A DNA stretch of 63,647 bases, filler included, from Collodictyon triciliatum (taxonomy: Eukaryota): the NCBI GenBank assembly GCA_043381765.1. It is 17 parts of 17 records of this genome, joined end to end, with 100 filler letters (N's around TTAATTAATTAA, not from the genome) between each part and the next. Parts side by side here need not be neighbours in the genome. Positions count along the whole stretch, not along the records: positions 49,385 to 53,076 come from JBHJMP010006988.1; positions 53,177 to 56,869 come from JBHJMP010006989.1; positions 56,970 to 60,657 come from JBHJMP010006990.1; 14 more parts are not named here. One strand, given 5' to 3'. Positions 15,507 to 63,577 of the stretch are shown in pieces (positions within the stretch are counted from its first letter, which is position 1; every line of letters starts with the position of its first letter). The position numbers and the translations under genes were made by a program. A model generated the notes under the pieces. The model saw only the letters and a list, made by a program, of their open reading frames with translations, searched no databases and was not told the origin of the DNA.

Positions 15507-17262
15507 TTAGATGGTGGATTGGTAGCTTCCACCGCTGCCGCCGCCAGTCATGCGCCCAAAGAGCTCCTTGGTCTTGTTCCAGCTGTAGACGCAGCCGTCC
15601 TGGGGAAGGTGTTTGTGTCAGGAGAGAAAATATAAGATATATGTGGGATCCCAAGAGAAGAGCTGCATATGAACGTGAAGATGAAGATAAAGATAAAGAT
15701 CTTTGAATCGAATAAAGGAAAAAATGAAGCCAAAAATGAAGGCAAGACACCGACTTTGACGTAGCCAGGGAGGGTGCTCCAGAATTCGATGTTGGGGATG
15801 GACTCCTTCCCGCGGAGCTGCTTCTGGGTCATGTTGTAGGCAACACCGCCGCCGAGGTAGACGGCTCCGCCAACAAAGAAGCTGTATGTGGAGAAGCAGG
15901 GCTCCGGATCAGCCCTGGCACAAGGACGGGGACAGTGGAGAGCAGCTGGGAAAGAGGAAGAAGAAAGAGGAAGAAGAAAGAGGAAGAAGAAAGAGGAAGA
16001 AGAAAGAGGAAGAAGAAAGAAGAAGAAGAAAGAAGAAGAAAGAAGAAGAAAGAGGAAGAAAGAAGAAGAGGAAGAAAGAGGAAGAAAGAGGAAGAAGAAG
16101 GAGGAAGAAGGAGGAAGATGGCTGGCAGGGCACTTACATGATCAGGAAGACGGCTCCTCCACTGAGTCCTTCGTCGTCACCGTCATCGCCACCGCTTCCA
16201 CCGCCGCCACCACCACCACCACCACCACCGCCTGTCTTGCCGCACGCAGCGCTGGTCACCAGGCCAGTCACTTTGTAGGCTGCGCTGGTGTAGGCAACCT
16301 GCACAACAGCGTTACTTTGCGCTCTGCTGGTGTCTGGCTGCTGGCCTGGACAGGCACACAGAAAAAGAAAGAGGGAGAGGAAGAGAGGAAGAGAGGAAGA
16401 GAGGAAGAGAGGAAGAGAGGANNNNNNNNNNNNNNNNNNNNNNNNNNNNNNNNNNNNNNNNNNNNNNNNNNNNNNNNNNNNNNNNNNNNNNNNNNNNNNN
16501 NNNNNNNNNNNNNNNNNNNNNNNNNNNNNNNNNNNNNNNNNNNNNNNNNNNNNNNNNNNNNNNNNNNNNNNNNNNNNNNNNNNNNNNNNNNNNNNNNNNN
16601 NNNNNNNNNNNNNNNNNNNNNNNNNNNNNNNNNNNNNNNNNNNNNNNNNNNNNNNNNNNNNNNNNNNNNNNNNNNNNNNNNNNNNNNNNNNNNNNNNNNN
16701 NNNNNNNNNNNNNNNNNNNNNNNNNNNNNNNNNNNNNNNNNNNNNNNNNNNNAGGAAGGAAGGAAGGAAGGAAGGAAGGAAGGAAGGAAGGAAGGAAGGA
16801 AGCGCACCGTTCTTAAACTCAAAAGTAGGTGCGGCGGTCGAAGGGACCAAAGGAGCGCAGGTGCCACCGTTGGCCGGCTTCTCGAAGGACATGGAGCCAC
16901 TGTTGGACGGTGTTTGAGGAGGGGTCATAAGAAGCTTAAACTTAAATGGCTGAGAAGGGGCTGGAGTTGGGCTACCTGGCGCTGTTGCAGGTCGGGGTGA
17001 TGGCATCTGCGCAGAAGTTGAAGAAGTAGTCGTATAGGGAGCCTTCCTTCCCGTCGTAGAAGGATCTGAGGAGGTTGGGAGTGAGGTTGGGAGTGAGGTT
17101 GGGAGTCAGGGTCGCAGGCGGGACCTACCCGGTCTTCTTGAGGGGTGTGAGATCGTAGGTCTTGCCGTTGGGGGCGCTCCACGAGCACGACTGGCCTTGC
17201 ACGCTGCTCACGGCGAGGCACAGCAGGGCCACGAGGGCAAAGACGGACGTTGTGCGCGCCAT
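15507..17262 (-). CDS. ATG27 / cation-dependent mannose-6-phosphate receptor-like type I membrane protein; multi-exon, spans an N gap
   Basis: Signal peptide, then C.WSAPNGKTYDLTPL, YDYFFNFC, Gly linker, GLSGGAVFLI-FFVGGAVYLGGGVAYN..RGKESIPNIEFWSTLPGYVKDGC and a C-terminal YQSTI tail. Confidence 0.82.
15701..15724 (+). mobile_element. Ultra-short LINE 3'-end insertion in an intron; no clear TSD
   Basis: CTTTGAATCGAATAAAGGAAAAAA is identical to the terminus of the LINE copy at about 38438-38461. Confidence 0.65.
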
Positions 17263-18205
17263 CTGGGGGGGGAGGTCCTTGAGTGGCTTGTGGCTTGTGG
17301 TATGTCTGTGGGGCGGGGAGGCGTGGCGAGAGGGGTTGACAGGGGAGGGGGCTGGGGTTCTGGCTCTTGCGCAGAGTAGGCGCTCCTTGGCGTTGCCGTC
17401 TTGGTTGGGGCAGAGAGGGGAGGGGAAAGGGAAGGGAAAGGAGGCTGGAGGCTTGTGCCCGCGAGGTGGGCTGTCGCTGCCGAGCTGATTCATCTGTGGC
17501 AATCGCCACCCAAACACAACTCCTTCCCTTCGATCACAATCAGTGGCGCAGCCCACCCAAGTTAATCCTGTGCAACAGACTTTGACGGCTTAAGCTCTTG
17601 AATCATTGGGCAAATAACATGTCTGACTGTCCTATAAGAGGGCTTAGTTCGATTAAATAAGTTAGTTACAAAGATTCGTTGCTCTTGAAATATCGAGTTG
17701 ACATCTCGCCCACACGCGCTGTGACAATTGCTATGAGAAAAGACGATAGTAGACTTGCTGCTATCTAGTGCTAAGTTCAGGGCGCAGAACGAGTATATCC
17801 TATTTGTGGAAATTATATCACAAGAGTCCAAAAGACATAAAACTGCCTCATTTGCCCGAGTAAACTTATTTACTTATCTAACCTGTACCTCTATCTTACA
17901 TTGGATGGGCGCCAATGAGTTCGCTTGGCAGTACCTTCGACACTCCCCTCTAAATATTGTCGCACCTTACAAACGAACAAACTCACAAACAAACTCGGGA
18001 AATTTTTACTGTGTGCATATTAGAGTTCCAGGATGCATTTTGGCATTTGTTCCTCTTCATGATAAAAAAGATGTAAGGAGAGGCGCTTAAAGTTCGCCCC
18101 GAAATCTTTGATCTATCCTATACTTCGCGATGTGAATAAAATTTGGAGATCACACTTAAAGAGACAGACCGAGTAGAACAATAAATATATTCACAATATG
18201 AAGAC

Positions 18206-18478
18206 TTTTTTCCCTTTATTCGATTCAAAGTGCAGCGAGGTTATGCCATACAAAGGGGCGGGATGGGAGCGCATGGTAGAGAGCAAACGCGAGTAGGGGA
18301 AGACACTACTGTGGAGAGGCTAGCACTGGAAAGAATTCAGTGATAGCGAGCTGGTCAGGTGGGCGACCCAACTGGTTGATTGGTTGCGTGGGTAGCAGGG
18401 GTTGGATATGCAGTGGGAGATATCGCACGACACATTCCCACATCTCTCTTCGCTTGCGGTCAGAGTAGCGAAGAATGC
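18206..18478 (-). mobile_element. 5'-truncated L1/Tx1-like LINE copy (ORF2 C-terminus, 3' UTR, A-tail)
   Basis: About 270 bp with roughly 13 mismatches by eye to 38190-38460; CACAATATGAA on both flanks (18192-18202 and 18482-18492). Confidence 0.85.
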
Positions 18479-18828
18479 GGGCACAATATGAAAAAGATAA
18501 AGTCTCTTTTGATGAGAAACAATTAACACACTGGGTGAGAACAAAGACGCATTCTCTGAAAAATAATGTTATTACACAGAGGTTCCTTCCTTCTTCTCCC
18601 AACCCACCGCATTACGAAGCCGAAAATACAGAAAAAAACACGCAAGCGATCGGAAAGAGCTATCCCGAGAAGGACGAGACCGCCAACCCGGAGAGCAAAA
18701 AGGTCACTTGATCACATCCCTTTACAACACAGGTTATGGACAGAGACACGCCGACGATCAAGACACCAGCTACCACCAACCTGTGAGTACAACATCCTAC
18801 TAATAAAACGGAGAGAGCTCTTTGAAAC

Positions 18829-38007: not shown

Positions 38008-38464
38008 ATACCAAATGACCCACGACTCTAGAATACTCTGGACAGTCACAAGGGGACATATGCTGTGGTTCTTATGGAGTGTGCGTGCATTCTCTCGCTC
38101 CAATGATTCACCCGAACGAGAAATCAGTGTATCCAAGCTTGAGAGCCTTGTGCAGTACAGCTTCCTGAACAGCCTGCTGAAACACGCTGGCATTCTTCGC
38201 TACTCTGACCGCAAGCGAAGAGAGATGTGGGAATGTGTCGTGCGATATCTCCCACAGCATATCCAACCTCTGCTACCCACGCAGCCAATCAACCAGTTGG
38301 GCCGCTCACCTGACCAGCTCGCTATCACTGATTTCTTTCCAGTGCTACCCTCTCCACGGTAGTGTTTTCCCCTACTCGTGTTTGCTCTCTCCCATGCGCT
38401 CCCATCCCGCCCCTTTGTATGGCATAACCTCGCTACACTTTGAATCGAATAAAGGAAAAAAAAA
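38008..38464 (+). mobile_element. 3' end of an L1/Tx1-like LINE (ORF2 C-terminus to stop at 38362, 3' UTR, AATAAA and A-tail); 5' part runs off the contig
   Basis: HMLWFLWSVRAFSR resembles the W.IW..RN motif ending L1-clade ORF2; second copy at 18206-18478; ends in TTTGAATCGAATAAAGGAAAAAAAAA. Confidence 0.8.
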
Positions 38465-40837
38465 GAATAGCTAGAAACTCTATCATGGGGAAATATAAAT
38501 GTAAAAATGTCATCATATGGAATGAAGGCACTTTGACAAAAAAGCGATTGAGTATTTGGAGAAGCATTAAAAAAATAGAAGGAAAACACCAAATATACGA
38601 ATGAGTGGAATTACGTTCTCCTTCGCCAGAGATTTCAGACAAACTCTAACAGTGGCACCTAGAAGCACAAAGGAAGAACAATCGTATGCTCTGAAAATTC
38701 CGCTTTTCGGTATCCTTTTGAAATACTTATAATAAAATTAAATATGAGGGCATGACATCGATAATTTCAGACCGTCAATTATTTACTGAAAAATTATTAC
38801 AAATCGGCGAAGGAAAAGATGCCTCTCATCAAGGACATAAATCGGCACCAACTAGCCAGCGGTGTCGCGGTAAGTAACTTGAATGAGTTAAAAAAGTATT
38901 TCAAATGCAAACATATCTTATCTGAGCATTATTCATTCCGACTTTTCCTTATTTTTTAAATCACATAAAACAAATCCTCTACAAGTGAATAGGATGTCAA
39001 AGCGCCATTCATCATTTTGCACAAGGTTAATGGTGTGGTTTTAAATGTAAGTAACGAGTGAGAATGGTAAAGTTGTAAAGACGCGAGCCAGTATTATTGA
39101 AGAAAGTGCTTTATTCACTTTCTTGTGAGTTCTCCGAATAAAAACGAGTAATATGTTTTCAAGGATTCTTCATCGAATTACATTGATTCTGAACGTGTGT
39201 TGAAGAAGGAATACTTACATACTTAATTATGAGCAATAATTCCTAGTATCTTAAATATCAATTATTATTCTATTTATGATGCCGCTTTTGAATAATATAT
39301 GATTTATTTGATTTATTGCATATATGTTAACAGTTATTCTGTTTATCAGGCAGAGTCAGAAGAGCCGGAGTTAAAATGCTAGTATTTTTTATTTTTAGTT
39401 TACCAATCACGATACTTTTAGCTTAATATATCATCCATTCTTAATAAACATTTGGAACCTAACACTACATTCATTTATATATATGTGATGCCGGTTTGGG
39501 GTCATTATGTCGCTTTTCTTATTCTTATAGGTGTATCCAAATAGTTTCAGACATATTGGTCGAAAATTGAAGGATGTAGTGCATAAGTGAGAGATGCCAT
39601 ACACTATTATTTGGAATTGCCCAAACAAACATAAAATAGTGTCTAAAATGTTTCTCACCTTCGTATTCTTCTATCGACCAAAACCAAAAAAAACCAAAAA
39701 AACCAAAAAAACCAAAAACCCACGCACGAAAATTTTAACCCATATTTGTGTACAAAAGAAATATTGGTGTCATATTTGCTGGTCTTTTTTTTTTTTGACT
39801 CGTGTGGTCCACTTTCTGCATGATACCCCTTGCATATACGAACAATCACCTGTTCCTAATTGAGTTTATTTGCTCTGTGGAGCCGTTCTTGCGCGAGTAA
39901 ATTCAAAACAGTCTAGATTCCGCATTGCTCCTAGTTTGACGTAGTTATTTCGTATATCATCACCGGCTAAACTATATCACTTATGGTTGTTTTGTACTCT
40001 CTAACCGAATATATATTGGTAGCCGCCTGATATCACCATTTTCTTTCTCTTTTTCTACAGTGGAGCTTTTGGTTGTCTGATACTGTCCTATCAAATCAGT
40101 TGCTTTGGGCCTAGTGAATCCAAATTGCTCAACTCGTCTCATAGTCTAGTTGCTGAGCCGGTGCCAGTTTCATATTTATAATATTGCTCTTAACATTCTC
40201 TTTATAACTTTCTTTCTGTATTAATTTCTTTTACTAGAGATAAAGAAAGAAGATAATAATCGATTGATGAAAAGGTAATGGGTGTCAATATTCAATAAAT
40301 AAAATTTGGTCCGTAAAATTGCAGAAGAGACCAGAGCAGACAAAGCTAATTCAAGGATTGCGTGCACCTTTATGCCGCTTTGAAAGGTGTTCCATAAATC
40401 ATATGAATACACGGGCAATGAACGAAAACAACCCCATGAAACATAGATGAAAGTACGAGTCAGGTATATTGACACTTTCATCGGACAATTTACCAAATTA
40501 CAGGATATCAGGTTATTTTATTTTGAGCATGTGATTGTACTTCAGTCTCCCTTGACACATAACCCTAACGTACCTATTGAAAAAAAGAGAGACAAAAAAA
40601 AAAGGAGAAAAAAAGAAAGGCAAGCACGGAAGTACATTCCCCGTTAACTGGCAACTGCTGTAGCATTCCTGGCATGAACTTTGATTGTCTCGATTATCAC
40701 ATAGGCACTTGCGCACATTTAACACATAATAATCTTAGATATAGAAGCTGCATATCCTTGTGGTTCTGTGTCTGAAGTTTTGTATTTACACTAGAAATAT
40801 TAATATCAAGGTGTTAGTCTCCACTGGATTCAAGGGG

Positions 40838-49384: not shown

Positions 49385-50733
49385 AATTGGACACGAATGT
49401 CCCCATGCTTTTCAATTAAATACCCTTGGAAAGTATTGTAAGTGTTGGGATATTTAATTGGGTCTAACTCTCGTGGCAAGTCAGGGCGCATAATTATATC
49501 TTTGACGTATCTTTTCTTTTCATCAGCAAACCAGTTTATTAAGAAACTTTTTCCATCAGGAACACGTAAGTGCGAATATCTCATATTAGCATCCTGGTGG
49601 TTCCATTGATGAAGAGTAAAATCGTCTTTAATCATCATACATCGACCCATGAATTCAAAATGAGTCTTTTCAAATGACTCTTTTGTTATATTATACCATT
49701 GTTCCCAAACCCTGTCCCTATAAGCAATATACACCATAGTAAACAAGAATTTAAAATCTTTTTCCGACAATACTTGTTTGAGCATTGTAAGTAGCGTTCT
49801 AAATGTAACTGGGTGTTTAGACTTTGGGGCCTTTTGTAACTGGCTTAATTTTTCAAGTCGTTCTTTGGTACTTGACTCTTGAGAATCTGGCAACTGGGCA
49901 CAAACTTTTAACCAGGTCTCTTGCAAATTATCAACATTTGCATTGACTAAAATAAACCCATACTTGACCCAACTATCGTAATCTTGTGGAAGTTTTTTAA
50001 AATATTCTTGTTGCAACATTTTATCAAAAAGCTCCTCAGTAAAAATTCTTTCTTGTAAAGAAGTAGTAGTGGTTTTTACTTTGTCTGCAATCATAGGACA
50101 AATAGTAGACTCAACATTTTCAGGTAACGTTTGTTCAATGGTGCGTTTCTTTGACTTTACCAAATGTGAAATGCTGGAAAAATCAAAGTCAGATATTTTG
50201 TTTTTAAACATTTTATCTTCACGCTCCCAGATGTTCTTTGTATACTTTATGATATCAACATCTGGCATTCCTTCACCAAACACCTTGGTACCTTCCATTG
50301 ACTTTTGAAAATCTTTAATTTTTACATAGATATGAAAGCCCTTGTTGTTACCTCGTGTCCAGCACATCGAATTGTTGATTGTTGGGACATTTAAAATTTG
50401 CCCAAGTTGATTAGGGTCATTTATCTCTTCAGAATCACAATCAATACAAACAAGGTCGGGAACATACTTTAGATAAAGTGACGCAACTCTAAAACACTTA
50501 TCTTTCTTTTCCTCTCGATTTACTCTTCGTTTAAGATATGTACACCAAGTCGTATACATAGTTTTACTCTTTTCTTTATACGCTTCTAACTCATTTAATG
50601 GGCAGTCGTTCTTCTCAATGATAGTATGCTTTTTACCATTTTCTAAATAGTAATGAGCATAGGCATATGGGATTTGATTTGATACTATGAATTCAATAGT
50701 TTGCATTTTTTCTTCCATTATCTGATCGTTCAT
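49385..50733 (-). CDS. Viral AEP primase(-polymerase) with PriCT-2 and the start of a D5/SF3 helicase region; 3' partial
   Basis: AEP motifs LVCIDCD, GNNKGFHIYV and VDII; PriCT-2-like YDSWVKYGFILVN; then FEKTHF..FLINWFADEKKRY..RP..TYNTFQGY, typical of the region preceding D5-like helicases. Confidence 0.75.
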
Positions 50734-50933
50734 ACTCTACCTTAGAAATTTGTTTTTAACTTAGCAATTATACTATATTATCTATTATATTATATATATT
50801 ATCTTATTAGATAGGTTAAAAATGTAAATTGCTATGGAAAGAGGAAGATTTTTAATACAGTGTATTGAAGTTATAATTCCTATAGGAACCTAGTTTTGGG
50901 TAGCAAGCGACCCGGGACCCAGCGAAAATCAAT

Positions 50934-51137
50934 TCAATCAAATGTTAGAGTCAACTTGTTGGTACCATTCTCAACTAGCATTCTAAACAGATACTTTAAC
51001 TTTTTTCTTTTTGCGTATTTCTCGAGGTAATAAATATGGTTGAGCATGTCGTCGTAGTCTGAAAAGTGTTCCTTGGAAAAAAACAACTGCTCTCCTACAG
51101 TGTTATCATTCAAAGTGTAAATGAGCAGAGTGTACAT
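50934..51137 (-). CDS. Small conserved viral protein (67 aa, C-terminus KLTLTFD)
   Basis: Resembles 58801-58965 in element B; ATG at 51137 is preceded by TTTTCT-N10. Confidence 0.6.
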   Translation of the reverse strand: MYTLLIYTLNDNTVGEQLFFSKEHFSDYDDMLNHIYYLEKYAKRKKLKYLFRMLVENGTNKLTLTFD

Positions 51138-51158
51138 AAATTTTCTGAGAAAATATAT
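51138..51158. promoter_or_regulatory. Putative bidirectional viral promoter ATTTTCT-G-AGAAAAT between divergent ATGs
   Basis: Quasi-palindrome supplying TTTTCT to both the small ORF (10 nt spacer) and the ATPase (12 nt spacer). Confidence 0.55.
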
Positions 51159-51881
51159 ATGCAAAGCAAACGAGTGTCCAACATTAAAATAAAACCACTG
51201 ACTCAGCCTCCTAAGGGTAAAAATTTTGGGATTCCGTTTCCATTGCCGGATATTTCCACGCGAAACTTTATAATGGGAGTGCTCGGACCCACAGGCTCAA
51301 GTAAAACCACATTGTACGCAAATTTAATTCGCAAGCACTACTTTGAAGTTTTCAATAAAATATATTTCTGTTCACCCAATGTCACGGATGAAGGGAAAGT
51401 GTATGATCGGTCGCTGGATTCAATAGAGTTTGCCGAGGAACGAGTTTTTCCAACAATTAATAACGAGGTTGCAAATTATATCAAAGAAGATTGCGAGAAC
51501 GACGAGGACTTTAAAAAAGAAGATTTTCGTGCGTTGCTTATAATAGATGATTTGGCAAATGAGCTCAAAGCGGTTAAGCATACTGAACTAACGAAATTAA
51601 TTCTAAAGTCCAGGCACTTGCATTTGTCAATCATTATGATATCGCACAAGTTTACATATTTCCAACGAATCCATCGCACCAACTTTACGCATTTTATCAT
51701 GTACCGGTCAAAGTCGAAAGCCGAGATAAAAACAATATATGACGATATCATTGACCTGTCTGAGGAGAAGTTCCAGGAGCTTTATGAATATGCAACCGCA
51801 GAAAAATACAATTTTCTTTATGTGATTTGCAATTCCAACCCCCAACAATACTTTAAAAATTTTGAAGAGGAGTTAACTTAG
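51159..51881 (+). CDS. A32-like (FtsK/HerA) DNA packaging ATPase
   Basis: FIMGVLGPTGSSKTT (Walker A variant), FNKIYFCSP, LLIIDD (Walker B), SRH arginine finger, RTN and C-terminal YNFLYV..YFKNF. Confidence 0.9.
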   Translation: MQSKRVSNIKIKPLTQPPKGKNFGIPFPLPDISTRNFIMGVLGPTGSSKTTLYANLIRKHYFEVFNKIYFCSPNVTDEGKVYDRSLDSIEFAEERVFPTINNEVANYIKEDCENDEDFKKEDFRALLIIDDLANELKAVKHTELTKLILKSRHLHLSIIMISHKFTYFQRIHRTNFTHFIMYRSKSKAEIKTIYDDIIDLSEEKFQELYEYATAEKYNFLYVICNSNPQQYFKNFEEELT

Positions 51882-51901
51882 AATTTTTTATTTGTAATGA
51901 T

Positions 51902-52312
51902 ATGGTATTCACACGTAGAAGCTTGAAGAAATTTTTCAAAGGTGCAGTTAAAGTCGTACGGAAGGGAATGAATGTCGGAGAAAAAGTTGTTAATGCCGTC
52001 GATAAAGCCACCGGGGGCGGGCTGCGGGACCTCGCTCGGACGGCAACGGGCGGACTGTCAGAACAGGCGCTGAAGGTGTACAATGCAAACAAAGGGCACG
52101 TGAAAAAGGGACTCGACTTGGCTGAAGGCAAAAAGGGTGCTACTGTTGCAGGTCTAGTCGAAGGCACTAAATTCCAAAAGCCATTTGAAAAAGGTGCTGA
52201 ACAATTGAGAAAATACGACCCTGTAATTCGAAAAGCTGGTCAACAAAACGAATCCCTGGGAAAAGTAATTAATACGCACGGGGACAACATTCGAAATAAA
52301 ATAGGTTACTAA
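51902..52312 (+). CDS. Basic Gly/Lys-rich viral protein with N-terminal amphipathic helix; candidate core or membrane-lytic protein
   Basis: SLKKFFKGAVKVVRKG and ATGGG; lies between the ATPase and the major capsid gene. Confidence 0.65.
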   Translation: MVFTRRSLKKFFKGAVKVVRKGMNVGEKVVNAVDKATGGGLRDLARTATGGLSEQALKVYNANKGHVKKGLDLAEGKKGATVAGLVEGTKFQKPFEKGAEQLRKYDPVIRKAGQQNESLGKVINTHGDNIRNKIGY

Positions 52313-52338
52313 GCGAAAATTATTTTCTTTTTAAAAAT

Positions 52339-53076
52339 ATGGATTCACTACCCGAAGAACTGCAATTTAGAAATATCTCATCCAAGAAAAAAACAATCCT
52401 TGAAAAGCAACAGCGCCAGGTCCTGCCCAGCAATGGAACTGAGCAGACTGCCAATTTTTCGTCAGGGCCGCAGATCGTGTTTAGAGTGCCTATAGACAAC
52501 GAGTGGAGTATTCAAATGGACTCAGCTCATATCATAGCGGATTTGACTGTTAAGGGGTTGTCTAATGAAGACTCATATAATAATCTTAAAAGAACACAAA
52601 TAGATATAGATGCGGGTGTTAAACTTCCAATTCTTGCTCCCTGTGAGAGTTATGAAAGTTTTATTTATCGTATTGCCGTTTATCTCAATGGTAGTGAGCT
52701 TGAGCGTATAGATAATTACAGTTACCTTGAGACTTTTAAACATAACTGGTGTAATAATCAGAATTGGGTCAATCTTATGTCAGGTGGAATGGGATTGGGT
52801 CAATCTATTTTAGAAAAATCCAAATTACTGTTAGGTGGACTGGCTACTGATGCAACCAGTTCAAATACTATTCAAATAGGATTTCCACTTCGTTACTTGG
52901 GGTTGATGAATATAAAGACACTTTTGCCGGCTTACTTACTGGGTCCCAATTCTCTTGAAATTCGTATTTGGTTGGCACCAGCCTCTGAATGTTTTACATA
53001 TGGTTCTATAACCAATACTGCAAATAATAATTATCGATACATAAATTGGACACCTAACACAGCCAACGCTATTAGC
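52339..53076 (+). CDS. PLV-type double jelly-roll major capsid protein; 3' partial
   Basis: LPEELQF..RQVLPSNG..F.SGPQIVFRVP, ESFIYRIAVYLNGSELERIDNYSYL and FPL..LGLMN..TLLPAYLL..LEIRIWLAP follow the pattern of the first jelly roll of PLV capsids; adjacent to an A32 ATPase. Confidence 0.82.
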
Positions 53077-54296
53077 NNNNNNNNNNNNNNNNNNNNNNNN
53101 NNNNNNNNNNNNNNNNNNNNTTAATTAATTAANNNNNNNNNNNNNNNNNNNNNNNNNNNNNNNNNNNNNNNNNNNNACATACATACATACATACATACAT
53201 ACATACATACATACATACATACATACATACATACATACATACATACATACATACATACATACATACATACATACATACATACATACATACATAAAAAACA
53301 GAGAAAATAAGAATAAAAAAGCAAAAATAGATAATGAAAAATGAAAACAAAGAAAATAAGCAAAATCAAAACAACCATGGGACAAAATCAACTCTAGCAC
53401 CTTAATAGCTGTATATTTATTACACTGCAGGAATCTTAAGCTGATTTCACATCCCACCATATCGCCAGATCGAGTAAGCCGCCGAAAACCTGTTGAAATG
53501 GGTATTTGAGCTGCATCTTCCATTTTATGATACATTCATCATTTACCATATTGTCGCTATTCAATTGGTGCGCCGATGGTAAATCACTTCCCACTGCGCA
53601 GAATCGAAGCCATTACCAAAGCCGATATACGGACGTCGTATGGTTGATGAAAGCAAACAGTTTATGAGAAAGTCAAACGAGTCTCAATTCTCATTCGCAG
53701 AAATGTTTTCGTAATCCACCACACGATTGTCGATCTTTTCTAATATATCTACCCTCATGAGTAGCGAGAATGACATTGAAATGATTTTGAAGCATCTATT
53801 CGCTCCCTTTTTTTTTTCCATTATATGTTTCTCCGTTTACCCCTTTTTCTTTCCCAGTGCCACCTAATTAGCTTGATTTTGATCCCAACGAATGATATGC
53901 CGTCTATCTGATTCAGAGGAAAGACCTTAATCAAGATATTGTGTGTCTATGGGAGAGTAAATTGATCAAAGGAGGCTTTACTAAAGCCAAAGTGCATCAG
54001 GAAAATGATTAAACCAAAGAAAAACAACATCTTTGGATTCTCTTACATGTTCCTCAGGTCGAAGATACTCAAACTAGAAATGAATAAAGAAAAATAGCTA
54101 TACCGAAGGAGGCCATTTCGAATTCACTCAACAGAGGGGTATATGTGAATGACTGAAACATAAAGAACCCAGACACCCGATGCACATCTTTTGATTTGGT
54201 TCATTTTTAATTTTAACTCGTCATCGCCAAGCAAGATAGGCCTCTGAGTGGCCAAGCATCTTTCGACAAAACTGTGATTGAAACAGGCCATCCGAC

Positions 54297-56730
54297 TCAC
54301 TGAGAATCGTTTGTTCCTTGGCTCGACGGTGGAGTCTCACTGTCGCTGGGTTTCGTCTTTGAGAAAAAGTGATTCATGGACTTCATTCCCCGTTTATCCA
54401 CTTTGGCTAGTTTCCGTTGGGACACACTGAGGCCCGGTGCCTTCTTTTCAGCCTTTTTGGAACGATCAAAGTCTGCATCATAATCGCTCTGACTTGATTG
54501 CGAGTGGTCGGAGGCTGCAGACGGCTGAAATGCGAAATCTATTTCATGGCCATTTTCAGCAAATTGAAAACAAAGTAATAGGCTAAATAGGTGTATTGTA
54601 ATGAAAAAGCCTCAAGGTAAACAGTGTGATATTTTTATGTGCATAGACCGGATATGAGTAGAGGTGTTATAGTGAGAGAACAAGGAGTGTCTCGAATATG
54701 ACTCTTTACCAGAGAGTTTCTTGGTCACTAAATGCTCCCTAATTGGTACGTTTGGGGATAAGGGCATGAGTGGTAGGCGATAAAGCAATATCGGAATCAT
54801 CGTACACATCATAAATGTATGAAAAACTGCTTGATTAAGGATAGGTACAATTCATATCGAATAAAGGAAAAAAAAAAAGAAAAAGAAAAGGATAGATACA
54901 ATTCATAATTTTACTCCAAAATTCAATTGAATAACCTGTATGTTTCTTCAATTATGGAGTATACGTCTTTTGGTAAATATTCCTTCAAAATCGACGCGCA
55001 GAATCGTGTGAGTGTGGCTGCATCATGAAGTACTTTAAGTTAATGCCGAAATGCATTTCATGGAAAAATTACGAGTATTCTTATTTTCTAATATGTATAT
55101 ATTCATTCACCAGCATCTTCACCCATCATGCACAATATTGAAAGGAATAAAAAAAAAAAGAGGAGTATATGTTCATTCGGTATGACTCTAGAAAAAGAAG
55201 CCTTACATTCATCACATTCTGGGTTAGCTCTTGAAGTGGCAAAGGACGAGGACCNNNNNNNNNNNNNNNNNNNNNNNNNNNNNNNNNNNNNNNNNNNNNN
55301 NNNNNNNNNNNNNNNNNNNNNNNNNNNNNNNNNNNNNNNNNNNNNNNNNNNNNNNNNNNNNNNNNNNNNNNNNNNNNNNNNNNNNNNNNNNNNNNNNNNN
55401 NNNNNNNNNNNNNNNNNNNNNNNNNNNNNNNNNNNNNNNNNNNNNNNNNNNNNNNNNNNNNNNNNNNNNNNNNNNNNNNNNNNNNNNNNNNNNNNNNNNN
55501 NNNNNNNNNNNNNNNNNNNNNNNNNNNNNNNNNNNNNNNNNNNNNNNNNNNNNNNNNNNNNNNNNNNNNNNNNNNNNNNNNNNNNNNNNNNNNNNNNNNN
55601 NNNNNNNNNNNNNNNNNNNNNNNNNNNNNNNNNNNNNNNNNNNNNNNNNNNNNNNNNNNNNNNNNNNNNNNNNNNNNNNNNNNNNNNNNNNNNNNNNNNN
55701 NNNNNNNNNNNNNNNNNNNNNNNNNNNNNNNNNNNNNNNNNNNNNNNNNNNNNNNNNNNNNNNNNNNNNNACACGTCTCGATAATGAATGGAAAATGAAA
55801 TTGAATTAACAACTTTTCACATCACAAATAAGTTCCAGGCGCAAATCTTTGCATTCTTTCAGTTTGTGCAATTTAGGTTCCTCAGAGGATGTCAAAATCT
55901 GCTCCATATCAATAAAAGCACCACCTTCACCTCTCTAGAAAGGATGTAAGTAGGTATAAAAGTTGCAAAAGAGTGGGTAAAGTAATAAAAGGAAACGAAA
56001 GTGCTGAGTACATCAACAAGCAGTCTTTATGCGGCATTACAACGAATACATGGTTAATATCACATACTCTTCCTTTACAAGAGTCAACCAATTTTGGTAT
56101 TATAAGAAAAAGCGGATCTATTTGTGATGCAAGATAAAGTGAACCATCTGCATGATAAAGAGGTTAGAATATCGCTTATCTGCTCATCACAGCTATAAGA
56201 GGTATTTCTAATGCCTGTAATTCACATCCTCAGATGACCTGGGTGTTAATTATGGGACATATAATATATGTTATTACAATTTTATTAGCATTAATAAAAT
56301 TATGATGGCAATATACAATACCTGCTATTGCGCTGTCATCGACGAACCATGATCGGTGTGGCTCTTTGGTAACCTGAATCTCATAGCAGAGACCCCCTTG
56401 AACAAGAAATTTTGCAGGTGACCCTGAGTATATTTTAATATCGAATACATAAGCATGTGTCTCCAAGTTTAAAAGTTAGTATAGAATGTTTGGCAGATTT
56501 AAGGAATCGGGTTAAAAAATTAGAATAAAGACAAAATAAAACAGAATTAAAATTAAAATTAAACAAAAATAAAAACATAATTAAAACAAAATAAAACCAG
56601 ATTATTTTTCTAAAAAAAGAAAAAAAAAGGAAGCTATAAACCTGTGCGTGGGTGCAACAAAGAAAGGAACTCAATGTGCTCTTCACCGTCTGCTGTTCCT
56701 TAACGTCCAAAACGAAGGTAGGTTCGTTCG
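54297..56730 (-). CDS. RNASEH2B: Ribonuclease H2 subunit B; multi-exon, spans an N gap, 5' end uncertain
   Basis: YEIQ..PHRSWFVDD, DGSLYLASQIDPLFLIIPKL and the C-terminal PIP box LAKVDKRGMKSMNHFF. Confidence 0.85.
54857..54887 (+). mobile_element. Ultra-short LINE 3'-end insertion with 20-bp TSD, intronic
   Basis: AAGGATAGGTACAATTCATA [TCGAATAAAGG plus A-rich tail] AAGGATAGATACAATTCATA (1 mismatch). Confidence 0.85.
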
Positions 56731-56771
56731 TTTTATATATATTAAGAGTACATGTAAAAAACACACACAAA

Positions 56772-56869
<98 letters not shown>

Positions 56870-56969
56870 NNNNNNNNNNNNNNNNNNNNNNNNNNNNNNN
56901 NNNNNNNNNNNNNTTAATTAATTAANNNNNNNNNNNNNNNNNNNNNNNNNNNNNNNNNNNNNNNNNNNN

Positions 56970-58457
56970 CTTCTCACCAAATACCTCATTTAGAGATGAG
57001 TGTGTGCCGCCGTATTGCTTGCCCAGAACACCCTGGATATACAGCTTATGAAAAAAAGATGTCTTACCAGTGCCTCCTTTGTTGTTTCGGAATATCATCA
57101 TCTTGCCAATTCGATAATGCGGATGGAATATGATTTTGGCTAAATACTGCATCACATATTTCAGTGACGCAGGATTGCCAGCGCACAGATACTGGGACAA
57201 CTGCTTATAGTTCATACTCTGTTTCCAGATAGCATAATCATCTGCTGTCACTGAGCTGCGAATTTGATTACAATACCCCCACCAGTCAGTTTTTTGTATC
57301 GCATTTAACTCTGGAAAATACTTTTCGAACTTGAACCCTTTAAAATAATTGTAAGCTCGTGGATTGTAATAGTTGGTAAACATGTTGTATGGCATAAAGT
57401 CGAAATACTTGTAGCGCCGTTCGGGACATAAATTTCTCTGTACATGTTTCCAGTACTTGTCTCCAAACTCCTCACAATAAGAACCTGGATTGTCTATGGG
57501 TTCGGCCTTGCGAGAGTTGTCTTCATGTTCATAAAACAACTTTCCAAGTATCATAAAGTGTTCAAGAGCAAACTTTGTGATACACAGGCCATCTTATTCT
57601 TTTTCTTTATCAGGCTCTGGCTCGAAAGTCGATTGAATAGCTTTACTCTCAAATTCTAGGGCGTACCCGGTATGCTCACGTATGTATTCAGACAACTTGA
57701 CATTCAGTTCTGTTCTGTATTGACTTTTGTTGACATACAGTCCGTCAAACACATAGACACTAACATGAACACTGTTTTGTCGCAAAAAATCGATAGCCAG
57801 TTGCATCACTTTTAATTCCTCTGTCTGCAAATAGTAACTCAACGTGCTATAAATGCGATTGCTGTGTTCGTATAGAGCGTTGGTGTCTTTTTTAAACTTT
57901 ACGTTGTGCCACTCCTTACACTTTTCGTATACGTTACCGGCTAGGACTAGCATCTCTTCTCCAAGGGTTTTAGTAAACTCGTCGCCCTGAACCCATTTGT
58001 TGCCATATGCAATGCTCAAATACAGCTTCTTGGCTTCTTTGTGTGACATGTTAAAATCCTTCATCGTTTTATGGATGATCTGCTCACGGTCCTCAACATA
58101 TGTCTTTATCGCAGTGTGGGGCAGATCCCACTTCCTGGCCAAATCCAAGCTTAAGCAATAGTGGCAATTCTTGATGTCCAGGTTAATGTGTGTGTCACAC
58201 AACAAGAATTGACGCACGGGTTTTGGAAGCTTTAACACTGAAACTGATTTATGATACACCCTTCCAATTCCAATCTTTTGCAAGTACTCGGTGTGCTCAT
58301 ATTTCACAGTCAAACGATACGTATCGTCGTCTGGTGCTGATAAGCTCATCTTGCGTATAACGCCTAATATGCCTTTGGTCGGCTTATCAATCTTATCACG
58401 CGGTTGCTTCATGAGAAGCGCCACTTTCTTGACGTCGATGTGCTCAACTAGTTCCAT
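56970..58457 (-). pseudogene. TVpol (PolA-like primase/polymerase) fused to SF3 helicase, split by one in-frame TAA at 57594-57596; 3' partial
   Basis: GRVY, LPKPVR, motif A LDIKNCH, motif B AKKLYLSIAYG and motif C VFDGLYV; the same frame continues EKE*DGLC into YLAKIIFHP..GKMMIF..GGTGKTSF (Walker A). Confidence 0.8.
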
Positions 58458-58513
58458 TGTAGTACTAAGATACACTCTTATTACGAAATGTCTTTAACTG
58501 TGTATTTTGTGCA

Positions 58514-58761
58514 CTCCAGAAGAAAATGGGCATTCGGGTGTTCCCTTGCAAATGTCCCTTGCAAATGTCCCCTTTTAGGGCCCTTCCAAAACTATTTTTA
58601 ATTTGACCCTACCCTAGAATATTTGGGTAGGGTAGGGTCTATTTTTCCATCTACTTTCTATATTTTGGGGGTTGAACAAGTAAGGATGAACATAGGATAA
58701 ACATAGAGGTACAAGACTGAAAGAAGTAAGGAGACATGCCAGTGCCCATTTTCTTCTGGAG
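58514..58761. repeat. 19-bp perfect inverted repeat enclosing a tandem 13-mer and a hairpin
   Basis: CTCCAGAAGAAAATGGGCA (58514-58532) and TGCCCATTTTCTTCTGGAG (58743-58761); CCCTTGCAAATGT twice; GACCCTACCCT..AGGGTAGGGTC (58605-58639). Confidence 0.85.
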
Positions 58762-58800
58762 GATGAACAGGACTTAAACAGGGGTTGTGCAGTTCTCCCG

Positions 58801-58965
58801 TTAATCAAAAATGACCTTGACCGGCCCTTCTATGATACCGTACATATGCGGCCCCTTCTTCTTTCTGCTCTTTTTCCTCAATGCCTCCAGCTTATCAAAG
58901 TATTCTTTCAGTTCCTCAAAAGTAGAAAAGAGCAGTTCACCGTCCGTGGTATATAGTCGTAGCAT
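58801..58965 (-). CDS. Small conserved viral protein (54 aa, C-terminus VKVIFD)
   Basis: Resembles 50934-51137; ATG is preceded by TATCT-N10. Confidence 0.6.
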   Translation of the reverse strand: MLRLYTTDGELLFSTFEELKEYFDKLEALRKKSRKKKGPHMYGIIEGPVKVIFD

Positions 58966-58981
58966 ATCTAAGACTAGATAT

Positions 58982-59703
58982 TTAAAAAAGGATCTCTTCC
59001 GCAAAGTTCTTGTAAGCTTTGATTCTGCGGGGTACCATCAAGTTGACGTAGAGAAAGCAATAGGGGTCTGCGGTGGCAAAATCAAATACCTGGTCAAAGA
59101 GTTTCTGATCGAGGTTTGTCATTTCATTGAGGGCTTCCCGTTCGTGTTTGTTGTCGGTATAGAAAGCAACGAGGTGGGAGGCGTTTTGCCGTACCTTGGG
59201 GTTGAACAATCGAATGGCGTGACCCACTACGATCATAGAAAGTCTGAAATGACGGTGCTGCAACATTTTCTTGAGCAGGGTCTTACTAGGGCGCTCGAAA
59301 GCGGTTCCCAGGTCGTCTACCACGAGAAGGTAAGCATTGTCCTTGAACTCGGGGTCACCGGTTATGTCTTTTGTGACTTGTTCAAAGATTTCCTCGTTAA
59401 AGTCCTCATACATGCGGCTCTTGTGAAATTTGACACCCTCGTATGAAGAATCGTGTATTTCTCCTCCGGAAATATTACTGGAGCAAAAATATACCTTGTC
59501 GAATATCTGGTGGTACATTTCTCGCTTACCCAGCAAATTACTGATCAGCGTCGTTTTACCGCTAGCGACTTCTGCAGAGATCAACATTCAGAAGGGTCTA
59601 TCACTCTTTGCGTCCGGCAATATCTCCAATATCACTTCGCGCTTGTTTTTTTGACGGTTTTTAGTGGGGCAACCTCAACGTTACTTACTTTCTTGCTTTC
59701 CAT
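58982..59703 (-). pseudogene. A32-like packaging ATPase with a frameshift (A7 run, 59646-59652) and an in-frame TGA (59588-59590)
   Basis: N-terminus MESKKVSN aligns with MQSKRVSN of element A; LPD..RPF*MLISAEVASGKTT, LLVVDD, HRH, RQN and YCFLYV..YKNF. Confidence 0.85.
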
Positions 59704-59709
59704 ACAGTA

Positions 59710-60036
59710 TTAACGAAATAAAAGATCATTGTCGTACGAGAGTTCCCGCACCTGGGCCTTGTCTACTGTTTCCTTAATTCTGCGCTTCTCGATTTTTCTA
59801 GCCTCTTCCTTTGTGAGATATTGTTTGATCAAGGACACGTCGTGCTGTAACGAAGAATAGTCGTGAATGGGTTTTTTGACAGCCTCGTATTGCTTGACCG
59901 TTTGAACGATTTCCTTGTTCTTCTTTTTTGCTTCTGTTGCTTTAGGTTGAATTTTGGCGAGGTGGGCTCTCTGCTTTTCTGATGCTACGCGTTTCTTTTT
60001 TGGTTTCTCAATGGTATTTATTTCCGAATCACTCAT
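59710..60036 (-). CDS. Basic coiled-coil viral protein
   Basis: 108 aa ORF with KPKKKRVASEKQRAHLAK; preceded by TTTTCT-N10-ATG; packed between ATPase and penton. Confidence 0.65.
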   Translation of the reverse strand: MSDSEINTIEKPKKKRVASEKQRAHLAKIQPKATEAKKKNKEIVQTVKQYEAVKKPIHDYSSLQHDVSLIKQYLTKEEARKIEKRRIKETVDKAQVRELSYDNDLLFR

Positions 60037-60069
60037 ATGAATCCATAGAAAATAATTTCTGGCAAGAGT
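60037..60069. promoter_or_regulatory. Putative bidirectional viral promoter AGAAA-ATAA-TTTCT between divergent ATGs
   Basis: TTTCT lies 10 nt before the ATG at 60036 (minus) and 9 nt before the ATG at 60070 (plus). Confidence 0.55.
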
Positions 60070-60657
60070 ATGGACAAAGCGTTTTACATTTATGTTGATT
60101 CCGAAAACCGAGAAAGCGGAAGTATCGCAGACTTTAATTTCGCAACGACACAGAACAGGTACGTGTCGAGTAAAGCAAAAATCGGATTAGAGAGCATCCA
60201 GATACCGAATGCCGTACACAATGTCACATCCGCCAACAACGAGTTATCCTTCCTTTGCCAAGTCGGAGCAGACAGCCCCGTTTCATACAATGTGTCACTT
60301 GAAACTGGATTACAAACCATCAATGAAATAGTCAGTGACATTAGAACAAAGATGAACGCAGCCACGGCATCCCAGTCAGCTAATGCGGTTGTTTCAGTTT
60401 CATTTCTTACCGGCAAACAGAAGATTGCTATCAAAGGAGACGGAGCATCAATCTCATATCAATTGTTTGTGAATTCGTCGACGTGCCGGGACCTAATTGG
60501 GCTGACGGCCAATCTATCATTCAATACGTCTTTTGTGGAGCTACAGAATACAGTCAATATTCGACCTTTTGATTATGTGTACCTGGTCAGCCCGAACATT
60601 CAGAGTTCGAGCTTTGCCAGCAACATAGGCGGCAATGGCATCATCGCAAAAATACCG
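60070..60657 (+). CDS. Minor capsid protein (penton, single jelly roll); 3' partial
   Basis: IYVDSENRESGSIADF, IGLESIQIPNAVHNVTSANN, DLIGL, VNIRPFDYVYL and IIAKIP match the PLV/virophage penton pattern. Confidence 0.85.
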
Positions 60658-60992: not shown

Positions 60993-63577
60993 ATGGATCC
61001 GCCCCAACTCTCAAGTATCGGTCATGTTTCCTCTTTTCTGGAGAGCTTCGACTATGCCAAAAGGCCAACCCTCGACTTGAGTGATCCGATCCCTTTATCT
61101 TGGTTGGAAAATTCAGGAAGCTTGTCAACTGAAGAAACAAAGTGCATGTTTGACCTTCTTCGAGTAGCTGAGGTTTCTTATTTTCTTTTTCATTTCTTTT
61201 TCTTTTTTATGTTTGTTCTATTTCTCATATTTTTTAATCACTCTTCAAACAAGAGCCACAATCAGATTGTAGTAATTTCTTCCTTATCCAAAGCTGATAA
61301 ATGCTTNNNNNNNNNNNNNNNNNNNNNNNNNNNNNNNNNNNNNNNNNNNNNNNNNNNNNNNNNNNNNNNNNNNNNNNNNNNNNNNNNNNNNNNNNNNNNN
61401 NNNNNNNNNNNNNNNNNNNNNNNNNNNNNNNNNNNNNNNNNNNNNNNNNNNNNNCTGTGTGTTTGTTTTCCTATTGTTCCATCATACTCCCAGTTTTCCT
61501 CCCTTATTTCTATGTGTTTTTTCACTAATGCAATGACATCTATCTGTGTGAATATGTTAGTCGTAGATGACACTCTTTTAATAATTCGCTGGAAATTAAG
61601 ATATACTGGGTTTCGAATATTTGTAGCATTTTGTAAATACAGTATATTTATTGATGCATATCATATCCAACATTCCATTCACAGGAGTTAGTATCTGTCT
61701 TACCCGATGATTTGATGAGGAAGTATGTTTATGTCAAAGGGTTGATTATTGGCAAACTTTCCAAACTCAGGACAGGTTGATTTATTGATTCATATATATG
61801 TATATATATTGATACCGAAATTAAGCAGTCCTTTTTTTTTATTCTAGATGATACGCATACCCCTGATTTAGATTCCATCAGAGAGGCCGTAATTACCTAC
61901 ATATCATGATACTCATATGCGATGTGTAAAAGAAGCCATACCGTTTGCAATCAATTCTATACATTACTTAATTATTTGAAAACAAAGGATAGACAGGTTC
62001 TTACTCAAGATCCAATGTCTTTAATATCCCTGTCAGAGGATATGTACCAGAGTATACAATTACTTCAATCTGAACTTTCAGCTGTCTGTACGTTCCAGTT
62101 GAATATTCATTAGATCTTAGTCACTCAAATGAGACCCTATTTCTTTCTTTTTTTTTTGTATCAGAAATTAGTAGATACATTTTTATGTATTATCGGTATT
62201 TGTTTTTTAAAATATGTGAATGCTATTAATTTCATAAACTTATCATTTTTGTGCATTTGCCAAGATATTCAAGATAGAACGACCCAAAGCACAATCTCTT
62301 CTCCAAATTCTGACATGAGCACAAAAAGGCAATCAATCAAGCTGGAAGCTGTGAAGAAAATTACAGAAAGGTTATCCTGTGCTTTTCTACTATTCATTTT
62401 GGTTCAACCCGAAGTTTTTTTCTTGATGAAAATCTCGTTTTATATTACAAACCAACCATCATACCCTGTCCCAATATTACCACCCATACCAATCATCGGC
62501 GAATAGGTGTTTCTCTGTGTCGAGTAAATTAAGGGGCTCCTTGAGGTCTTTTGCGAGCAATCTAAACGCTAATCATGAATCAATCGCAAGATACAAAGAT
62601 GCTTATGAAAAACTCATGAAAGAAAAGTATTTTCAATCATACTTCCATTAAGGAAAACTCTTTTAAAAATATTTCTGATAAAATTAAAAATAAATGTATA
62701 AAATTATGTAGGAAAGATCTAGAGAAACAATTAGAGTTGAATCGTTCGGAAATGATAGCACAACGGGACTATCAACTCTCAGAGATTGGCCGAGTTAAAC
62801 AAGAATTTCAATCTGATGTCGAGCAGTAGGAGCCCTCCTTTTATTTCAATTGATGTTTTTTTTTAATGGCTTATATTGTACTCGTAACGTTTTTTTTTGT
62901 TTTGGTTATTTTTGTATTGTTTATTCCCAACATCACACAACAAGCGACTTTTTATCCGATTCTTTGCATCGCAGTTCTATTGCGATGATTGAAGAACTTC
63001 ACAGACAAATTCAAATTCTTGAACATGAAAAAGAAAATGTGATTTTACGGTACGAAAAGTTATATAGCGAGTTGGTTATGCTTCAACAAAAGCAAAAAGC
63101 TACCGCTGAACAGAACTCTGGTAGCTTTACTATTTGATTAAATCTAGAAAGGATATAACCGAGATCGAATTATATGCAGTTGCATTTGAAGTATTTTTTT
63201 CGGGATTTTTTTCACATAACCTTGAAATATGACATAGCTGCGGTGACTGAGATGATGAGGAACGAAACGGATATGCTCACTAAGCGATATGATGCTCTCC
63301 TTTACCAAGAAAAGGAAATGTAATAGATTTCTAAAAATAATAATCATACGCTAAATACCAACATGTTGCATCGAAAATTTATTGTTCGTTTGAATGAGGC
63401 TTCTAAAGTGCTTCTCTTTTCACATAGGTATGACCGCTCAAGGATTGAAATGGATGCAAAGTACACACAAATTCACTTAAAAATATCCAATATATCTGCA
63501 GAAGCGAAGGATGTTTTGTGGCATGTAAATGAAATAGACTCAAAATATAGCACAGTTTTACAGACCATCATCGCGGT
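60993..63577 (+). CDS. Uncharacterised multi-exon protein with C-terminal coiled coil; boundaries approximate
   Basis: Short open exons with GT-AG boundaries; heptad-rich segments such as IEELHRQIQILEHEKENVILRYEKLYSEL. No family recognised. Confidence 0.5.

Follow-up and report, generated by a model that had tools for sequence, protein, structure and literature searches.

A 63,647-base stretch of the draft genome of Collodictyon triciliatum (GenBank assembly GCA_043381765.1), called the window in the following, carries two virus-like fragments whose replicase genes belong to families with unrelated N-terminal heads on a homologous helicase module. The favoured explanation, to which a probability of about 0.7 is given, is that the fragments derive from two related small double-stranded DNA viruses of the polinton-like virus (PLV) or virophage type, with an old displacement of the head and a recent exchange of the whole replicase gene. 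Each virus would encode a primase-helicase replicase with an N-terminal nucleotidyl-transferase head and a C-terminal DUF5906/D5-like superfamily 3 (SF3) helicase, the head making, and perhaps extending, primers on the DNA unwound by the helicase. The head would be an archaeo-eukaryotic primase (AEP)-like primase-polymerase (prim-pol) followed by a PriCT-2-like domain in replicase A, and a minimal family-A polymerase (TVpol) in replicase B. In the old event the head would have been displaced on one helicase lineage, between a small upstream open reading frame (ORF) and the FExxHF pre-helicase segment, giving rise to the sister families AEP-S3H and TVpol-S3H. In the recent event the whole replicase gene would have been exchanged downstream of the packaging ATPase, within an ATPase clade made up of A, B and the metagenome loci L004 and L006, leaving B with a TVpol-S3H where its closest relatives have an AEP-S3H. 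Domain boundaries, homologies, trees and synteny are shown by the analysis, and from them the enzymatic roles, the AEP nature of the A head and integration into a host are inferred.

Seventeen draft contigs, each about 3.7 kb long, make up the window, a pseudomolecule in which they are sorted by size from 3,710 down to 3,688 bases, with the last one cut by the window end, and artificially joined by 16 spacers of the form N44-TTAATTAATTAA-N44. The span 49385-58457, in which the original prediction saw a swap of the priming domain inside a single virus lineage of a single host, is not one locus but three linker-joined contigs, and contig 15 (53177-56869), unrelated to A and B, lies between contig 14 with A and contig 16 with B. 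Because these are separate contigs joined by artificial linkers, the strand and adjacency of A and B relative to each other are uninformative, and the size-sorted concatenation makes arguments from adjacency or strand across contigs void anywhere in the window. Neither contig 14 nor contig 16 has host flanks, and the placement of both viruses in one host is not supported. The parts of the two replicases are as follows:

49385-50733, minus strand: first 449 residues of replicase A, comprising AEP-like head, PriCT-2-like helical domain and pre-helicase segment, truncated by the contig end.
50209-50481, minus strand: AEP-like catalytic core of A, about residues 85-175, with IDCD (D98, D100), GFH (H134) and VDII (D160).
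49774-50064, minus strand: PriCT-2-like helical domain of A, about residues 224-320, a sub-threshold match to Pfam PriCT_2 (E 0.031).
49385-49686, minus strand: pre-helicase segment of A, common with B, residues 350-449 (FEKTHF ... TYNTFQGY), where the hhalign match begins.
57597-58457, minus strand: 287-aa head of replicase B, a minimal family-A polymerase (TVpol) with a fold match to PolA structures.
57594-57596, minus strand: in-frame TAA in the acidic linker between the head and the pre-helicase segment of B, read across in relatives.
56970-57593, minus strand: 207 residues of B covering the pre-helicase segment and the beginning of the SF3 helicase, with FALEHF, AYNYFKGF and Walker A GGTGKT, truncated by the contig end.

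All the motifs quoted for A and B in the original prediction are found on the minus strand where it had placed them, FEKTHF at 49657-49674 and TYNTFQGY at 49420-49443 in A, and FALEHF at 57555-57572, AYNYFKGF at 57333-57356 and DIKNCH at 58161-58178 in B. Contig 14 stops 12 residues past TYNTFQGY, and replicase A is thus truncated before the helicase module that had been ascribed to it; contig 16 stops about 30 residues past Walker A of B. The window pieces alone are only weakly similar, the best high-scoring pair in BLASTP being 15 aa long with an E-value of 0.047, and the two replicases were compared through their relatives, which are given P numbers here. The relatives of A, P0002 to P0010, are proteins of 684-786 aa, 37-81% identical to A, with PF19263. 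For B, read through its stop as X, an exhaustive HMMER search found 1353 proteins at E<=1e-3. The best of these, P0012 (762 aa, 46% identical, E 5.5e-125), aligned over the stop in one stretch, residues 1-496 of B with 1-488, and the B relatives are thereby uninterrupted head-helicase fusions, single proteins of about 760-810 aa with PF19263. The description of replicase B as one open frame does not hold for the window copy, where the in-frame TAA splits head from helicase.

When the A-family and B-family profiles were aligned with hhalign they matched at 99.94% (E 5.8e-37). The 409 aligned columns begin at A residue 350 (TKESFEKTHF) and, in B, right after the acidic linker, and extend as far as the C-terminus, with nothing aligned in the heads. 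The pre-helicase segment is therefore homologous, as had been claimed, and the match starts sharply at FEKTHF/FALEHF; the module common to both families consists of this segment, the DUF5906 SF3 helicase and a C-terminal region. P0002 and P0012 are 22% identical over 307 aa (E 2e-14) from the YNxFxG motif on, and PF19263 scored above gathering in nine of the ten A-family members and in P0012, P0013, P0014 and P0016. The helicase set comprised the 150 best matches of a query that included the TVpol head of B, together with the A family and two phage proteins. An HMM of the TVpol head matched 151 proteins of this set and none of the ten A-family rows, which agrees with the earlier view that the heads are unrelated by sequence. 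Both profiles also matched the helicase chains 6k9c and 6k9e of the NrS-1 phage primase-polymerase (Protein Data Bank (PDB) 6k9c, 6k9e, 6a9w), the A family at 2.4e-8 and the B family at 1.1e-41, a distant relationship, and the A family matched an NrS-1-like Rhizobium phage protein in the helicase only (hhalign 96.1%).

A continuation of replicase A into a helicase is offered by P0011 (363 aa), which overlaps exactly with the last 35 residues of A and then runs through a full helicase. As P0011 differs from the P0002 tail at 1 of 363 positions, it may belong to A or to a P0002 variant. A and P0002, its closest relative, form a mosaic, with 56-96% identity in 50-residue windows of the head and complete identity from about residue 415. 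Contig 14 probably broke where the two variants converge, a pattern suggestive of recombination among several copies in the source.

The PolA-like head proposed for B was borne out. Its model, built on a 64-row alignment, reached a pLDDT of 95.3 and a pTM of 0.91 and has the family-A polymerase fold of thumb helices, RRM-like palm and inserted fingers, with Klenow, Bst, Taq, T7 and M. smegmatis Pol1 as top Foldseek matches at probability 1.0 (E 2e-6 to 1e-5, TM-score by query 0.42-0.60; 159 matches at E<=0.001). A PDB sequence search with B gave chance-level matches only (E 0.47-0.97). Invariant across the 64 rows are R66, D94, K143 and D238-G239, with R66, D94 and D238 invariant in the window copy also. 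The TV-Pol family was described by Iyer et al. 2008 (PMC2579912) with a conserved arginine in a beta-hairpin, two palm aspartates and an RxxxK in the fingers, and judged by the model R66, D94/D238 and K143 would correspond to that arginine, the two aspartates and the RxxxK lysine, respectively.

The head of A is more difficult to place. The catalytic motifs of AEP prim-pols are I (DxD), II (sGxH) and III (hD), and the corresponding D98, D100, H134 and D160 are invariant in ten of ten A-family rows and in six of six rows that include the metagenome element L008; in the model they sit on the strands E94-99, E133-138 and E159-163. The claim of a DxD/GxH AEP with PriCT-2 in A stands for the motifs but not for the domain matches, none of which was above threshold for either AEP or PriCT-2. 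Pfam PriCT_2 (PF08707) was matched by nine of the ten A-family members at E<=1, in all cases under the gathering score, the best at E 0.0014 and 19.4 bits (cutoff 22) and the window copy at 15.1 bits. The PriCT-2-like domain was modelled with a pLDDT of 77-93 and resembled the African swine fever virus PrimPol (8wvz) with a Z of 4.7 over 233-342. For the A model as a whole the best structural likeness was an RRM-like domain (Z 5.6), and among weak Foldseek matches were the NrS-1 prim-pol (E 0.67) and pRN1 (E 1.2). A PDB sequence search with A found no match, a protein homologue search with A, restricted to longer proteins, returned nothing, and neither did an NCBIfam search of A, P0006, P0009 and P0012. 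Matches to PHROG 'DNA primase' in the A family stem from the helicase half, since the window fragment without helicase had none. A language-model atlas placed 26 of 30 neighbours of the P0006 head in PF09250 Prim-Pol clusters (score 0.96), which is a lead only. On this indirect evidence the head of A is taken as a probable AEP prim-pol.

In L008 (2712-4769, plus strand) an A-like AEP head is fused to D5_N and a P4-type helicase, not DUF5906, making a third head-helicase combination, and this element adjoins a distant A32 ATPase. The A family matched L008 in columns 83-292 only (hhalign 96.2%, E 2.7e-9), and L008 itself matched TIGR01613 at 3.2e-16. Since an A-like head here rides on a P4-type helicase, the histories of head and helicase are separate.

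The helicase trees place the A and B families next to each other. A quick tree of 103 rows joined the ten rows of the A family and the ten of the B family as sister groups, with an SH-like approximate likelihood ratio test (SH-aLRT) value of 96, and nested both in a clade of 32 rows in which all the others have TVpol heads. In an LG+C20 tree of 54 rows A and B were joined with 100/98 support, followed by the next set with 95/89 and a further one with 97/94, and the A family was monophyletic (100/100) to the exclusion of B. In the head tree all 11 TVpol rows of the B family fell in one 19-row clade (SH-aLRT 96), which also holds six rows adjoining A and B in the helicase tree as well as P0033 and P0102; the last two are distant in the helicase tree, and head and helicase trees agree only roughly. 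P0162 is TVpol-headed. The trees and L008 combined show separate histories of heads and helicases, and on the helicase lineage of A and B one head took the place of the other; this replacement could have run in either direction between the two families.

It is the genes flanking the replicases that separate the old event from a recent one. The features beside the two replicases are:

49385-53076: contig 14, virus-like fragment A, with N44-TTAATTAATTAA-N44 linkers on both sides and all four long ORFs open.
50934-51137, minus strand: small ORF preceding replicase A and sharing its strand, 67 aa counted from the first Met.
51159-51881, plus strand: A32-type packaging ATPase, Pfam Pox_A32 at E 8.7e-14, above gathering, divergent from the replicase.
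51902-52312, plus strand: 136-aa ORF, no family found.
52339-53076, plus strand: 246-aa ORF truncated by the contig end, no Pfam match, with 22% identity (E 5e-8) to the ORF at the end of L006; possibly a candidate capsid-module gene.
56970-60657: contig 16, virus-like fragment B, a decayed copy, between linkers, its arrangement backed by spanning metagenome contigs.
58801-58965, minus strand: small ORF between the ATPase and replicase B, 54 aa from the first Met.
58982-59703, minus strand: A32-type ATPase, Pox_A32 at E 8.6e-7, above gathering, open only from 59587.
59710-60036, minus strand: ORF108, conserved in L004 and L006 with 54-55% identity.
60070-60657, plus strand: 196-aa ORF truncated by the contig end, 80.6% identical to L004 6912-7676 (minus strand) and 33% to L006; no Pfam or PDB sequence match.

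The last of these is a candidate penton-like ORF, so named for a presumed likeness of N-termini. A metagenome scan with the A-family alignment gave seven loci, among them L004 (12.9 kb) and L006 (15.3 kb), whose A-type replicases are identical to P0007 and P0009. The genes neighbouring these A-type replicases match contig 16, not contig 14, and penton-like ORF, ORF108, ATPase, small ORF and replicase follow each other in the same order and orientation in contig 16, L004 and L006. The identities are:

ATPase: contig 16 versus L004 53.7%, versus L006 61.5%; contig 14 versus all three 31-36%.
ORF108: contig 16 versus L004 53.6%, versus L006 55.2%.
Penton-like ORF: contig 16 versus L004 80.6%, versus L006 33.0%.
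Helicase: contig 16 versus L004 25.2%, versus L006 25.8%; contig 14 (as P0011), L004 and L006 mutually 46-49%.

At the nucleotide level contig 16 and L004 are 74% identical over 768 bases. The only clearly shared gene of contigs 14 and 16 is the ATPase, 31% identical between them and on the opposite strand in contig 14, where it is divergent from the replicase, being co-oriented with it in contig 16. A tree of 13 ATPase rows gave (c14,(L004,(c16,L006))), c14 and c16 denoting the two contigs, with 97/97 and 97/95 support, set apart from eight TVpol-bearing IMG/VR loci and L008. The congruence of ATPase and helicase trees that had been expected is not seen, the B helicase lying outside the whole A family and the B ATPase beside L006; nor are A and B in distant clades, which had been named as the sign of two unrelated viruses, the ATPases grouping with 97/97 and the helicases with 100/98. 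Since the helicase travels with the head and not with the ATPase, the simplest reading of the recent event is that the whole replicase gene would have been exchanged at this locus in the contig-16 lineage or, in equivalent words, that recombination would have taken place between the replication and the morphogenetic modules.

The swap as it had been proposed, when taken as a recent displacement of the priming domain only, in one virus lineage of one host and with the helicase inherited vertically, is unlikely. It draws on the shared module beginning exactly at the head boundary, on the small ORF kept upstream of both heads and on helicase clades that are sisters with ATPases in one clade. However, the helicase of B is 25% identical to those of L004 and L006 where the adjoining ATPase is 54-61.5% identical, and for the flanks of B in general the identity to A-type carriers is 54-80%. 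A helicase evolving faster after a head-only swap would be needed to account for this, which is disfavoured because the A family is monophyletic (100/100) without B. Inside that family helicases diverge no further than ATPases do (46-49% versus 35-59%). Moreover, the ATPases of A and B are only 31% identical and the gene order differs, being divergent in contig 14 and co-oriented in contig 16. At the other extreme A and B might be unrelated viruses, with replicases alike only in the generic primase-helicase architecture. The low identity of A-type and B-type helicases (22-26%) would fit this, as would the frequency of AEP-S3H and TVpol-S3H fusions, for which multiple origins may be considered from accounts of virophages and PLVs (PMC3671162, PMC4642659). 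Against the 100/98 clade of A and B among 54 helicase rows, the 97/97 ATPase clade relative to eight TVpol-bearing IMG/VR loci and L008, and the syntenic flanks of contig 16, 54-80% identical to A-type carriers, it is a very unlikely explanation. Finally, the arrangement or the stops of B could be artefacts of a fragmented short-read assembly, given that the contigs are short and that one of the breaks is a length difference in a 7-base homopolymer run. Independent metagenome contigs give the order replicase, ATPase, ORF108 and penton-like ORF over all of contig 16, and three separate breaks with two near-invariant catalytic substitutions look like decay and not like a single error, which makes an artefact distinctly improbable.

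Some observations also weigh against the explanation favoured here, an old head displacement with a recent exchange of the replicase gene. The helicase of A is absent from the window and is supplied by P0011. The helicase sample is biased toward TVpol heads because the query contained one, and other AEP-headed helicases near A or B could be missing; a word-based search with the A helicase yielded no proteins beyond the A family and two with TVpol heads. Viral contigs were scanned with A, the B head, the A-family alignment and the helicase alignment, and three of the four scans for close relatives of A or B found none; with the B-family alignment, viral contigs in IMG/VR yielded nothing closer than distant TVpol loci, the best segments being 21-41% identical. 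A root joining the phage outgroup L002 to the A family was not rejected by the approximately unbiased test (p 0.111, log-likelihood difference 15.6). The model of A has a pLDDT of 62.7, about 42-66 over the head, with no significant match in Foldseek or VIA-align; no Pfam AEP family was found at E<=1 among the ten A-family members, and a PDB profile search with the A head only gave nothing at E<=10. Lastly, no capsid protein was identified, neither a double jelly-roll major capsid protein nor a penton protein, the candidate ORFs having no Pfam or PDB sequence match, including the 803-aa and 254-aa ORFs of L004 in the PDB search; candidates for capsid genes lie at 52339-53076 and 60070-60657 in the window and at 4482-6896 and 6912-7676 in L004. 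The designation as polinton-like virus is consequently drawn from the packaging ATPase, the types of replicase and synteny to metagenome contigs of 13-16 kb; genomes of PLVs and virophages are about 14-40 kb long and often have terminal repeats or an integrase. Against that length, the window contigs measure 3.7 kb and related metagenome contigs 12.9 and 16.4 kb. Downstream of the replicase in L006 a 655-aa ORF (12652-14619, plus strand) has sub-threshold matches to rve_3 (E 0.0024) and Peptidase_C15 (E 0.0028) and could be a candidate integrase or protease.

The B copy in the window looks like a decaying one and is probably endogenous and not functional. Besides the TAA in the replicase, contig 16 has two breaks in its ATPase, both within the N-terminal 40 codons and shortly before Walker A: an A-run of 7 bases (59646-59652) carries a frameshift, and a TGA stands in frame at 59588-59590. 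Three frame pieces match the L004 ATPase. The TVpol head has H139 (58041-58043) and N92 (58182-58184) instead of the R and D that occupy these positions in at least 90% of rows, which is consistent with relaxed selection on this copy. The RxxxK of the fingers is therefore not found in it, K143 being kept next to H139 where the other nine of the ten B-family rows have R. It is these three separate breaks together with two substitutions at near-invariant catalytic positions that speak for decay. Freshwater metagenome contigs 90-94% identical to contig 16 differ from it at both ATPase breaks. In run X3 one metagenome contig of 8403 bases extends over 56970-60380 and 60490-60645, being about 91% identical there, and contigs of X1 and X4 cover the region too, showing independently that the arrangement of contig 16 is not chimeric. 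No sequencing run contained at least half of the sampled words of the stretch, the shares being 0.05-0.13 and mostly from freshwater or lake metagenomes, and no RNA run was listed as matching these words. An alternative genetic code for the in-frame TGA and TAA was rejected, recoding being unlikely because TGA ends three of the four long ORFs of host contigs; the viral genes of the window terminate in TAA or TAG.

Upstream of the replicase, and on its strand, all four elements (contigs 14 and 16, L004 and L006) have a small lysine/arginine-rich ORF of 54-67 codons ending in FD or FE, whichever head follows. In the two metagenome loci it is located as follows:

L004, about 8807-8983: small ORF.
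L006, about 9393-9644: small ORF.

Between B and L006 the similarity is clear (E 1.5e-8, equalled by none of 200 shuffles). Between A and B it amounts to 29% over 51 aa with an E of 0.036, and one of 200 shuffles equalled the score. Among the six pairs four beat all 200 shuffles, and A versus L006 gave no match. The statement that both replicases lie downstream of the same small ORF can accordingly be kept as to presence and strand, but the similarity of A and B is weak and a common ORF is plausible but weakly backed. By analogy with CCPol, which needs a small partner, MP, it may be speculated that the small basic ORF and the replicase form a mobile two-gene cassette with the small protein as a priming accessory for either head. 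This is a long shot, although it would explain how AEP-S3H and TVpol-S3H replace each other at one locus in close freshwater viruses.

The TVpol-S3H of Sputnik V13, OLV25, PgVV and PLV-YSL1 is the closest known counterpart of replicase B, which likewise has a PolA-like head, about 290 aa long, in which the Arg, the Lys and both Asp of the family are conserved, is fused in its relatives to a D5-like/DUF5906 SF3 helicase and adjoins an A32-type ATPase. Unlike in these systems, a stop interrupts the window copy of B, which has H in place of the R in RxxxK. To the TVpol loci from IMG/VR it is only 21-27% identical. Replicase A has the domain order described for the AEP-S3H of PLVs, as in the Guillardia theta elements and cryptophyte PLVs, and for the D5 of Nucleocytoviricota (PMC4642659, PMC12220804), namely AEP-like core, PriCT-2-like domain, pre-helicase segment and SF3 helicase. 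It differs in that its head matches no Pfam AEP model and, from Pox_D5/P4-type AEP-S3H helicases, in that the A-family helicase is of the DUF5906 type and sister to the TVpol-linked clade. The head of B may further be compared to CCPol-MP of SCCmec, a member of the TV-Pol family that works with a D5-family helicase and whose primase activity has been shown biochemically (eLife 2020, PMC7581432). In contrast to B, CCPol is bacterial and stand-alone and, as reported there, requires the small partner MP; according to the same report none of the other proposed TV-Pol members had been biochemically characterised as of 2020.

The finding correctly rediscovers a known kind of system, to which it adds a new and well-resolved example. 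The inference of a primase role for TVpol from the swap of heads is not new, the displacement argument being found already in Iyer et al. 2008 (PMC2579912). TVpol-S3H and AEP-S3H with discordant domain trees were described in virophages and PLVs by Yutin et al. 2013 and 2015 (PMC3671162, PMC4642659), and both fusions are given as frequent in cryptophyte PLVs (2025, PMC12220804). For polisuviruses a preprint describes full replicase gene transfer as well as swapping of PolA/AEP heads and helicase domains (bioRxiv 10.64898/2026.10.13.758929), and both levels of exchange are likewise encountered here, with the difference from what that preprint presents that they are resolved in one syntenic set (contigs 14 and 16, L004 and L006) with percentage identities. 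The same viruses may possibly be contained already in the data of that preprint or in the tables of PMC12220804. No new question is opened beyond the displacement argument of 2008 and the mosaicism papers of 2013 to 2026. What the set of contigs 14 and 16, L004 and L006 does provide is a clean natural comparison, with an AEP-helicase or a TVpol-helicase at the same locus beside near-identical packaging-side genes, and P0002 or P0009 versus P0012 are matched natural proteins for testing priming by TVpol heads of eukaryotic viruses.

Elsewhere in the window, long ORFs of other contigs have domains of eukaryote type (protein kinase, LRR, NHL, FG-GAP and GT92 glycosyltransferase), many contigs are terminated by microsatellites, and further N blocks occur at 16422-16752, 55255-55770 and 61307-61454. 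Two stretches, 11364-13055 and 15888-17000, have raised G+C (0.45-0.53) and long ORFs in several frames of either strand, and these are probably low-complexity repeats rather than genes. Contigs 5 and 11 (18194-18611 and 38009-38610) share a repeated element with overlapping frames 89-94% identical, probably a host repeat or a transposon fragment.

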